From Terriglobales bacterium (GTDB taxonomy: Bacteria; Acidobacteriota; Terriglobia; Terriglobales; Acidobacteriaceae), in contig JBKQPN010000102.1 of the NCBI GenBank assembly GCA_052145015.1, positions 12,310-76,309 on the forward strand: a stretch of DNA of 64,000 nucleotides, in the 5' to 3' direction. The stretch's first letter is position 1. Each line of letters starts with the position of its first letter. Below the pieces are notes generated by a model, which saw nothing but the letters and a program-made list of their open reading frames with translations, did no database searches and had not been told where the DNA came from. Shown one piece after another: positions 20,010 to 20,618 of the stretch. The translations under genes were made by a program, and so were the position numbers.

Positions 20010-20618
20010 TTGGGTGGGCTGCCCTCCGCTTTCGAGAAGCCGACTGTTCACGTGCCTAAGCTGGTTCCCGTTTTGGTTTCGCATGTTGCGGGCATCCCGG
20101 GCTGGCTTAAAGTCGAAGTGGTGCCGGGTTCCTCGCAAACTTTGAGGATCGGCGATCGTGCGCCGGAATTTACGCTCGCGGCGGCGAATCGCAGCGAGGT
20201 CTATTCCCTCCCCCAGGTGCTGGTGCGCGGTCCGGTGATTCTGGAGTTCCTGCGGGGAACCTGGTGACCGAACTGCGTTAAGCGCATGGCCCAGTTGGAG
20301 CCACACAAGGACGAAATCGAGCGGATGGGGAGCCTGTTATACATCGCGGCCGAAAAACGCGGCGGGTTGTTCAAACCGGAGAAGTATCTGGCCCAGCATT
20401 CGGTCGGCTTTCCCTTCCTGCTGGACGAAGACCGCGCGGTCACCAAGGCCTATGGCATCTATCACTGGCTGGCGCACGATGCCATCAACATCGCACGGCC
20501 AGCCACCTTCATCGTGGACCGCAAGGGCATGCTGCGGTTCGTGTACGTCAGCTCCGACCAGAAAGACCGGGCGGACATCAGCTTGGTGTTGCAGCAGTTG
20601 CAGTCAGCGAGAGATTGA
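20010..20618 (+). CDS. Peroxiredoxin/redoxin-fold protein with in-frame TGA (20265..20267) at the W-C-P-x-C position; candidate selenoprotein (or pseudogene)
   Basis: Track ORFs 20010..20267 and 20286..20618 share one frame. Read-through gives [11 protein letters not shown]...[10 protein letters not shown]-[TGA][11 protein letters not shown]...[17 protein letters not shown]...ATFIVDRKG. The 5' start is uncertain; a GTG near 20117 is possible. Confidence 0.6.
20287..20303 (+). promoter_or_regulatory. SECIS-like stem-loop candidate downstream of the TGA
   Basis: UGGCCC-AGUU-GG(A)GCCA: 6 bp with a bulged A. The GU-containing tetraloop starts 26 nt after the UGA. Confidence 0.35.

Follow-up and report, generated by a model that had tools for sequence, protein, structure and literature searches.

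An in-frame UGA in a peroxiredoxin-like gene of Terriglobales is very probably translated as selenocysteine

In the window analyzed here, a stretch of 64,000 nucleotides from a Terriglobales contig, two open reading frames (ORFs) lie in the same frame and are parted by a single TGA (20265-20267). Is this codon the end of one protein, a scar in a decaying gene, or a site of recoding? We conclude that ORFs 20010..20267 and 20286..20618 are very probably one gene, which encodes a cytoplasmic 165-residue Prx/BCP-like thioredoxin-fold oxidoreductase and in which the UGA is translated as selenocysteine (Sec).

A sequence-only reading of this DNA had noted the shared frame and the lone TGA, and had proposed that the two halves together make up one fold; translation of the window confirmed the former, and profile searches agree with the latter. 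With the stop codon replaced by Cys, the read-through product matched one AhpC-TSA domain (PF00578, E=5.5e-19) at profile positions 1-123 of 124, spanning the TGA and scoring 68.8 bits (cutoff, 26); one Redoxin domain was likewise found. The start codon is probably GTG 20121, as judged by alignment with the ATG of orthologues L003-L007; other possible starts are GTG 20052, which gene callers choose, GTG 20118, and TTG 20142. No signal peptide was found in the 165-aa product of the GTG 20121 start. The features of the locus are collected in Table 1. The downstream ORF (20693-21331) matches no Pfam family, and no PDB entry is meaningfully related to it.

Table 1. Features of the peroxiredoxin-like locus, in window coordinates; positions with a plus sign are counted relative to the UGA
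Feature	Position	Strand	Remarks
Complete predicted selenoprotein gene	20121..20618	+	165 aa, Sec at residue 49; Prx-like thioredoxin-fold UxxC oxidoreductase
In-frame UGA, very probably read as Sec (U49), first position of the U-P-N-C redox motif	20265..20267	+	TGA in 130/131 motif-bearing sequences; Cys in orthologues, Sec in WP_010940744.1
Cys52 codon TGC, partner Cys of UxxC	20274..20276	+	aligns with the peroxidatic Cys of BCP 2cx3
Hairpin 1 (+10..+22), UGCGU-UAA-GCGCA	20274..20286	+	5 bp, 3-nt loop; RNAalifold, pair counts
Hairpin 2 (+23..+39), putative SECIS core	20287..20303	+	ViennaRNA, RNAalifold, covariation
Artefactual 71-aa ORF from gene callers, N-terminal part	20052..20267	+	same call in L213-L215
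Artefactual 110-aa ORF from gene callers, C-terminal part	20286..20618	+	many separate database clusters

The TGA is kept in 10 of 11 genomic orthologues, which are Terriglobales metagenome-assembled genomes (MAGs) with 60-96% identity and coding sequence intact on both sides; one orthologue (L004) is located on chromosome OY969886.1. A pattern search with the third codon base left free found TGA in 120/120 metagenome loci, a figure enriched for Sec forms because the pattern required G-T-W-x-P-N-C-V-K and its V-K codons lie within hairpin 1. The ORFs of these loci are intact in 101 cases, cut by contig ends in 17, and frameshifted in 2 (L090 and L123). Pairwise identity among Sec forms falls to 45%, and the entropy of codon positions follows the order third > first > second on both flanks of the TGA (0.98/0.56/1.44 at positions 1/2/3 upstream and 0.99/0.89/1.53 downstream). 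At the TGA column, L009 and 11 database orthologues (P0016/24/25/32/50/54/71/93/100/102/115) have Cys, and the Cys orthologues are syntenic, with the shared order enolase, prx, ~210-aa ORF; L217 and L218 carry TTA (Leu) at this site. On the sample analyzed, Sec looks ancestral in the Terriglobales clade and appears to have given way to Cys on at least five occasions, with the SECIS element decaying afterwards.

The sequence-only reading had also described a stem-loop, UGGCCC-AGUU-GG(A)GCCA, with its loop about 26 nt from the UGA. This structure is present, ViennaRNA predicts the same one (hairpin 2), and the UGA and the apical loop are 25 nt apart (+4..+28), a spacing free of indels across 118 sequences and within the published 16-37 nt. 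The description was incomplete in one respect, as a second conserved hairpin (hairpin 1) sits between the TGA and the first. Both hairpins were recovered by RNAalifold. In 113 of 118 Sec forms, hairpin 1 keeps all five of its pairs, and its loop position +15 is freely variable. The stem of hairpin 2 is made of pairs 24-38, 25-37, 26-36, and 28-34, joined in most orthologues by 27-35; the window's own copy takes an alternative register, in which A35 is bulged and pairs 27-34 and 28-33 form. Its apical loop, A-G-U-U (20293-20296, with G at +30), reads AGUUN in 112/118 sequences and AGGUN in the other 6.

Conservation of the hairpin in orthologues had been set beforehand as a test, and the hairpin proved to be both present and covarying. 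Among 118 distinct orthologous sequences, pair 25/37 is G-C in 59, A-U in 34, G-U in 25, and unpaired in none; the support from covariation comes mostly from one base pair. This RNA pair also forces coupled amino acid changes, Ala/Thr with Pro/Ser. Overall, 95.5% of cells are paired, compared with 18-59% in slid controls, and 0/500 shuffles match the observed value; for helix 2, the share is 92.7%. Third-position entropy is halved across the hairpin zone, to 0.71. Degenerate sites are fixed within it: the third base of the Cys52 codon (+12) is C in 124/125 sequences because it is paired within hairpin 1, +21 is C in 113/125, and +30 and +36 are G in 125/125 each, in contrast to a GAR codon outside the hairpins, at -18, which has G in 90 sequences and A in 33. 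Folding of a single sequence had to be rejected as evidence: the window region gives z = -0.12, and 86/200 shuffles fold equally well or better. The hairpin of the window alone is therefore no evidence, and it is conservation and covariation across the 118 sequences that raise it above chance.

The geometry falls within what is published for bacterial SECIS (bSECIS) elements, for which loop, stem, and spacing are constrained and a G is expected in the first two loop positions, most often with G or U after it (PMC13188914). The loop has 4-5 nt (published, 3-9) and the upper stem 5-6 bp (published, 4-16), and a G within the first two loop positions is followed by G or U. The SelB-type hairpin of the window has a marginal energy by itself, -7.0 kcal/mol against a model threshold of -7.5 or lower, and the two hairpins together reach -11.9 kcal/mol; across orthologues, 22/118 pass the threshold with hairpin 2 alone and 111/118 with both. 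Rfam gave no match at the gathering threshold in the whole window and none at E <= 10 in 20150-20420. As in the bSECISearch model and in E. coli fdhF, the element lies in the coding sequence directly 3' of the UGA and has a small loop. It differs from the bacterial SECIS consensus in having two separate short hairpins instead of one extended stem, and its bulge is an A on the 3' side, whereas the fdhF SECIS has a bulged U on the 5' side. Among Cys orthologues, the hairpins are intact in L203 (TGT), half lost in L204, and lost in L207, L208-210, and L009; those without hairpins carry CAA/GAA at +30/+36. The comparative evidence (a conserved TGA, Cys in homologues, and a conserved, covarying hairpin) thus almost certainly points to Sec at the TGA rather than decay, as the sequence-only reading had argued.

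What kind of protein would use this Sec? Prx-like thiol:disulfide oxidoreductase selenoproteins have the same domain (pfam00578) and the same F-x-R-G-x-W-U-P-x-C motif as the window protein. The tables of PMC13188914 and PMC9312934 list such UxxC/UxxU proteins, with Geobacter sulfurreducens as the archetype, and credit them to Kryukov & Gladyshev 2004. Since the field treats proteins with the same domain and the same Sec motif as one family (PMC9312934), the window protein belongs here. Its RGTW-U-PNC aligns with RGAW-U-PYC of G. sulfurreducens WP_010940744.1, Sec on Sec, at 25% identity (E=3e-15); the archetype is likewise a predicted, uncharacterized redox protein with Cys homologues. The alignment begins at archetype residue 54, and the window protein has ~10 residues before IGDRAPEF; it lacks both the ~50-aa N-terminal extension and a ~20-residue internal insertion of WP_010940744.1. 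We regard the missing extension as a subfamily difference because this feature lies outside the published family definition. The hosts differ too: an aerobic soil member of Terriglobales here, mostly anaerobic Deltaproteobacteria and Clostridia or marine organisms for the members listed earlier. The window gene is very probably a real selenoprotein gene, a distant relative of the already known Prx-like selenoproteins.

Relations to other peroxiredoxin groups are looser. An AF2 model of a Cys orthologue (P0100; pLDDT, 90.3) has a BCP/PrxQ-like fold, with residue 49 directly before helix 50-61, and the closest solved folds are BCP/PrxQ and AhpE structures (3hjp, 2cx3, and 4x1u; TM, 0.75-0.90). 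The TGA had been placed at the catalytic Cys of a W-C-P-x-C motif; it does take the first position, the N-terminal one of a Trx-like CxxC, giving W-[U]-P-N-C, and the first Cys of the 3kcm WCPPC motif is aligned with U49, but the peroxidatic Cys of BCP/PrxQ aligns with the second Cys and not with Sec. The canonical peroxiredoxin Thr/Ser (-3) and Pro (-7) relative to the peroxidatic Cys are missing: in the alignment with 2cx3, Sec stands opposite the Ser at -3 (part of the Prx TxxC motif), and Arg stands opposite the Pro at -7. A candidate active-site Arg, in NIA[R/H]PAT, is present in the window, but many orthologues have His there; in the 2cx3 alignment, the position is shifted by one residue. 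PrxU has Sec as its peroxidatic residue (TxxU), whereas here Sec lies three residues upstream, and the PrxU model NF040737 scores 19 against a cutoff of 270. None of the NCBIfam models reaches its cutoff on the window protein. The best match is the SelL-related NF040769 (PRX_like2, cd02970; E=1.4e-13), with which it shares a CxxC-type motif in a Prx scaffold and a second Cys at the peroxidatic position; by the NCBI criterion, it is not a member, because its score of 50.8 bits is below the curated cutoff of 120. The motif differs as well, the cd02970 selenoprotein in a 2026 review having UxxS and not UxxC; eukaryotic SelL has UxxU.

Translation and catalysis would most likely proceed as follows. 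The mRNA 3' of the UGA would fold into two adjacent hairpins, the second offering an A-G-U-U(N) loop 25 nt after the UGA; acting as a bacterial SECIS, hairpin 2 would recruit SelB and Sec-tRNA(Sec) to the ribosome stalled at the UGA. Sec49 would cap the N terminus of the first long helix, with Cys52 one turn on, forming U-P-N-C. The selenolate may be the attacking nucleophile, on a disulfide, sulfenate, or hydroperoxide substrate, and would form a selenenylsulfide with Cys52 that a thioredoxin-type reductant could reduce again.

The chief competitor of Sec insertion is another kind of recoding, in which the same hairpins would direct a different residue to the UGA: Cys, through a tRNA-Sec-like tRNA(Cys) and a SelB paralogue; Ser, carried by an allo-tRNA; or Trp, by near-cognate decoding. 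The conservation of UGA and hairpin and the Cys in homologues would be equally expected if this were the case, and the Sec biosynthesis genes were absent from the DNA searched. ARAGORN found no tRNA-Sec across the window and the ~1.3 Mb of related loci, and tblastn with E. coli SelA, SelB, and SelD and Treponema SelD found no relevant selA, selB, or selD there. The sole match was a SelB homologue in L063 (Anaerolineaceae), whose proximity is meaningless here because the Prx of L063 is an ordinary TxxC BCP. A second selenoprotein did not emerge either: tblastn with the FdhA, AhpD-like, and deiodinase-like proteins of Occallatibacter riparius found nothing relevant, a split-ORF scan of the window returned only shadow frames, and a scan of the 1.3 Mb for split ORFs with hairpins returned two matches, neither with a redox motif. 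Systems of selC*-type tRNA(Cys) and SelB* are known from other phyla, and Acidobacteria are among the bacteria with described allo-tRNAs (PMC7609411). Nevertheless, we consider this alternative very unlikely. Reports of the selC* tRNA(Cys) come from anaerobic Firmicutes, Thermodesulfobacteria, Nitrospirae, and Proteobacteria and do not include Acidobacteria (PMC7609411); the repeated change of TGA to TGY followed by hairpin loss in these lineages of the gene is the known pattern of Sec-to-Cys replacement; a costly recoding system kept merely to insert Cys would be purposeless; and the U of the window protein aligns with the U of established predicted selenoproteins. Genuine Sec also occurs in this part of the tree. 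Occallatibacter riparius belongs to Terriglobales. This cultured member of the Acidobacteriota is a Sec user with a published selenoproteome of three selenoproteins, among which a Prx-like protein was not reported (PMC12013277), and Acidobacteria are reported to possess selenoproteins (PMC1794560).

Could the TGA instead be a nonsense mutation of TGC or TGT in a decaying peroxiredoxin-like gene? Only one step separates these codons, the gene is annotated in fragments everywhere, and rare variants resemble decay (the TTA of L217/L218 and the frameshifts of L090/L123). Against this, the same TGA recurs in more than 130 sequences as diverged as described above and drawn from many independent samples, both flanks keep coding periodicity, other stops are absent in 101/120 loci, and a specific covarying RNA structure goes with TGA and is lost with TGY. 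On these comparisons, the pseudogene explanation appears effectively refuted, and we assign it a negligible probability.

Equally improbable is the production of two polypeptides, with termination at the UGA, reinitiation at a conserved AUG (20286) 19 nt downstream, and hairpins that serve translational coupling. This AUG (+22..+24) is ~99% conserved, and gene callers take it as a start; its bases are otherwise constrained, A22 by hairpin 1 and U23 and G24 by hairpin 2. In-frame conservation extends through the six codons that separate UGA from AUG (P-N-C-V-K-R), partner Cys included, and the Cys orthologues, in which this segment is certainly translated, have the same residues there. Neither piece would be a complete thioredoxin fold, and the active-site helix would be split. 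Finally, an alternative code with TGA as Trp or Gly was rejected because TGA closes 24 of the 51 called ORFs whose ends lie in the window and the DNA is 63.5% G+C.

If UGA is read as Sec, current annotations of this gene are wrong, much as the sequence-only reading had foreseen in predicting that pipelines would split it. NCBI and Logan gene calls divide it into the 71-aa and 110-aa ORFs, one JGI call renders the TGA as Trp, and most of the best 120 matches of one protein search are fragments of 110-114 aa. A clade HMM combined with a description of the two-hairpin SECIS would mend these annotations and provide a handy marker of Sec use among the Acidobacteriota of soils, where this phylum is dominant. 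Its selenoproteome is barely charted, with one cultured genome and three selenoproteins in the literature searched. We found no report of a Prx-like selenoprotein clade in Terriglobia/Acidobacteriota in that literature, whose coverage was incomplete.

A selenoprotein gene in Terriglobales does not overturn current understanding. Were the inserted residue something other than Sec, a very abundant soil gene would instead mark a SECIS-dependent, selenium-independent recoding system in Terriglobales. With Sec at the UGA, this single syntenic locus offers a clean natural series of Sec/Cys exchange, with the SECIS caught at every stage of decay. The chances seem evenly balanced that the clade represents an uncatalogued, Sec-ancestral subfamily, whose members may rank with the most common selenoproteins in Acidobacteriota of aerobic soils.

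The TGA at 20265-20267 lies in the frame common to ORFs 20010..20267 and 20286..20618, just as the sequence-only reading had described. Joined across the stop as though it encoded Cys, the ORFs yield one AhpC-TSA domain (PF00578, E=5.5e-19, profile positions 1-123 of 124) and also one Redoxin domain, bearing out the proposal that both halves form a single fold. The likely start is GTG 20121, which aligns with the ATG of the orthologous loci L003-L007 and gives a protein of 165 residues with no signal peptide and with selenocysteine (Sec) at residue 49. Comparative and RNA evidence indicates that both the earlier observation and its interpretation as a selenoprotein were right, and we consider it highly probable that a genuine Sec-UGA and a bacterial SECIS (bSECIS) lie in a gene for a Prx-like UxxC selenoprotein.

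Features of the Prx-like selenoprotein locus (window coordinates; +n positions count the U of the UGA as +1)
Feature	Position	Strand	Remarks
Enolase	18533-19954	-	Divergently transcribed from the selenoprotein gene
Enolase and neighbors	17970-19954 and 15778-17397	-	DUF2059 gene and cofactor-independent phosphoglycerate mutase beyond enolase
Hairpin H1	20274-20286 (+10..+22)	+	UGCGU-NAA-RCGCA; RNAalifold on 118-sequence alignment
Hairpin H2	20287-20303 (+23..+39)	+	RNAalifold on 118-sequence alignment; adjoins H1
ORF, ∼211 aa	20693-21331	+	Signal-peptide-like N terminus MVMKRVIRVTLAMLLLAAAAVAQEG; 75 nt downstream of the selenoprotein gene

Whether relatives carry TGA or TGC at this codon had been left to comparison. 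When one genome per species was scanned, 11 close relatives were retrieved, each of them a Terriglobales/Acidobacteriota MAG; 10 have TGA, including L008 and L010 at only about 60% identity, and the sole exception is an Edaphobacter aggregans MAG (L009) with TGC. Metagenomes were scanned with the pattern GGNACNTGGTGNCCNAAYTGYGTNAA, which leaves the third base of the Sec codon free; at least 120 loci were found, with TGA in 120/120 among the matches listed, in a sample enriched for Sec forms (orthologues with TGA) because the V-K codons demanded after the second Cys fall inside H1. Among the best 120 protein database matches, the full-length ones are 55-63% identical and have Cys at the Sec column, as does L009, which places the TGA at the redox-Cys position as suspected. 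Most of the 120, at 76-100% identity, are proteins of 110-114 aa that match just the C-terminal ∼70% of the query. In very many assemblies, then, gene callers end at the same TGA, the splitting that had been anticipated.

The SECIS-like stem-loop of the sequence-only reading (20287..20303) fared less simply. It is the predicted minimum-energy structure of the window sequence, but the 61-nt region folded alone does no better than dinucleotide shuffles (z = -0.12), so the window hairpin by itself is not evidence; in orthologues, however, a hairpin downstream of the TGA is conserved and covaries. An alignment of 118 distinct sequences, without indels through +60, gave two hairpins, H1 and H2, on which 95.5% of cells are paired, versus 18-59% after a shift of the 3' partners by 1-3 columns; 0/500 column shuffles attain the observed paired fraction or covariation score. 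The most informative pair, +25/+37, is G-C in 59 sequences, A-U in 34, G-U in 25, and unpaired in none. Both are first codon positions, so that through this covariation the choice of Ala or Thr at one residue is coupled to that of Pro or Ser at another: MAQxEP, MTQxES, and MAQxES are present and MTQxEP is absent. Degenerate stem and loop sites are fixed, with C at +12 of TGY (124/125) and +21 of CGN (113/125) and G at +30 of CAR and +36 of GAR (125/125 each); by contrast, GAR at -18 is G in 90 and A in 33, and loop positions +15 and +33 are freely variable. Third-position entropy is 0.71 within the hairpin zone versus 1.44-1.53 outside. Pair +27/+35 is U-A in 84 sequences and C/A in 32, the window among the latter. 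These C/A sequences can shift register, bulging A35 and pairing C27-G34 and C28-G33, and the stem-loop originally drawn is this alternative register of H2.

The published bSECIS model, as summarized in PMC13188914, allows 3-9 nt in the loop, 4-16 bp in the upper stem, and a UGA-to-loop distance of 16-37 nt; it also calls for a G at loop position 1 or 2, with G or U usually next, and for an MFE of ≤ -7.5 kcal/mol. The H2 loop of 4-5 nt (AGUUN in 112/118, AGGUN in 6/118) conforms, as do the stem of 5-6 bp and the spacing of 25 nt, which the earlier reading had already judged to be in range. In energy, H2 alone is marginal, at -7.0 kcal/mol in the window and with 22/118 sequences reaching the limit; together, H1 and H2 have -11.9 kcal/mol in the window, and 111/118 sequences reach it. 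No Rfam model matched the hairpin region.

Searches of the window, together with some 1.3 Mb of related loci, found neither selA, selB, selD, or tRNA-Sec nor a second selenoprotein gene. Occallatibacter riparius DSM 25168 is a member of Terriglobales. It is listed among Sec-utilizing bacteria, with FdhA, AhpD-like, and deiodinase-like proteins that contain Sec (PMC12013277), and Acidobacteria were credited with three selenoprotein families in 2006 (PMC1794560). The literature thus supports Sec machinery indirectly, at the level of the phylum, which leaves a very slight probability that the SECIS directs the insertion of some residue besides Sec (as with selC* tRNA[Cys] and allo-tRNAs). On an Anaerolineaceae contig (L063), a selB homologue (1523-3397; 32% identity to Escherichia coli SelB across 656 aligned columns) lies upstream of a Prx homologue, at a distance of about 1.6 kb; since this Prx is an ordinary BCP of the TxxC type (FTPVC), their closeness is probably a coincidence.

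Sec rather than decay, as first proposed, is favored by retention of the TGA in diverged relatives, intact frames on both sides, and conserved, covarying hairpins. The Sec forms are not clonal, with pairwise identity down to 45% (median, 71%; 111 complete sequences). Entropies at first/second/third codon positions are 0.98/0.56/1.44 upstream of the TGA and 0.99/0.89/1.53 downstream, a pattern indicating purifying selection on the translated frame on both sides. The ORF is intact in 101 of the 120 metagenome loci, cut by a contig end in 17, and frameshifted in 2 from one sample. A pseudogene is ruled out by this divergence, the codon-position entropy of both flanks, and the 101/120 intact ORFs. 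The only TGA-bearing loci with a broken downstream frame, L090 and L123, both reach a stop after 58 codons and come from JGI sample Ga0182031, as does L083, whose C-terminal region likewise reads as frameshifted; the common sample suggests an assembly-quality problem rather than pseudogenes.

Synteny marks the relatives with TGC or TGT (Cys forms) as true orthologues: the arrangement is the same, enolase lying divergently upstream and the ∼210-aa ORF downstream. L203 (724-1230; NCBI GCA_030155925.1, JALYFN010044100.1) has TGT, the identical downstream peptide, and every pair of both hairpins (5/5 and 5/5; loop AGUUG); this locus apparently went from Sec to Cys very recently, leaving a fossil SECIS behind. 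L204 (TGC) has lost H1, and L207, L208-210, and L009 have lost both hairpins, with CAA at +30 and GAA at +36, versus G in 125/125 Sec forms. This stepwise loss shows that the RNA constraint goes with the TGA rather than with the amino acid sequence. A neighbor-joining tree with parsimony places Sec at the root, with at least five Sec-to-Cys changes, in a sample enriched for Sec forms. In two assemblies (L217, 549-1067, and L218, 525-1043; protein P0028), TTA (Leu) stands at the Sec codon, a single G-to-T change away from TGA, with both hairpins intact; having Leu in the catalytic position points to an allele inactivated only recently or to a sequencing variant. Database protein P0086 (L219, 468-974; JGI 3300081487) has Trp at the Sec position where the DNA has TGA, evidently from a gene caller reading TGA as Trp (code-4-style) on a short contig, which is a second kind of annotation artifact for this family.

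Both the enolase-prx arrangement and the position of the downstream ORF (209-223 aa) are kept in Sec and Cys loci alike. Pfam yielded no family for this ORF and the PDB no meaningful relative; the ORF could be cotranscribed with the selenoprotein gene as a functional partner.

In sequence alignments to solved structures, Sec is matched in 3kcm with the leading Cys of WCPPC, a Trx-type motif, and in BCP 2cx3 with the S-P-V-C Ser, three residues before the peroxidatic Cys, which is thereby aligned with Cys52; the 2cx3 Pro seven residues before that Cys aligns with Arg. The AlphaFold model of a Cys orthologue (P0100; pLDDT 90.3, pTM 0.89) has its closest solved folds among BCP/PrxQ/AhpE (3hjp, TM 0.85/0.90), and residue 49 directly precedes helix 50-61. 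From family knowledge, we infer that the Prx scaffold carries a redox couple like that of Trx: the Sec49 selenolate at the helix N-cap would attack the substrate and then bond with Cys52 as a selenenylsulfide, to be resolved by a thioredoxin-type reductant.

The Geobacter sulfurreducens archetype (WP_010940744.1) is 25% identical (BLASTP E=3e-15), Sec aligned to Sec; the window protein lacks its ∼50-aa N-terminal extension and one internal insertion. The best NCBIfam model, NF040769 (SelL-related redox protein), scores 50.8 versus a cutoff of 120, and the clade is therefore named by no curated model. Sequences in the deep-Sep supplement have the motif FYRG-x-W-U-P-Y-C. In two distant homologues (27-29% identity), the aligned column likewise holds an in-frame TGA: a Verrucomicrobiia MAG (L020, 5001-5519) with the classic UxxC Prx-like motif, FRGHW[TGA]PYC, and an Anaerolineae MAG (L033, 2033-2482) with LRSLS[TGA]PNS, possibly the UxxS form given in a 2026 review, or decay. 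No published description of the Terriglobales clade was found in the searchable literature, whose coverage is incomplete. By the field's classification rule, the protein is a member of the known Prx-like UxxC family; judged by sequence and architecture, it represents a distinct clade. These findings indicate that a Prx-like selenoprotein gene is widespread in soil Terriglobales and systematically misannotated.
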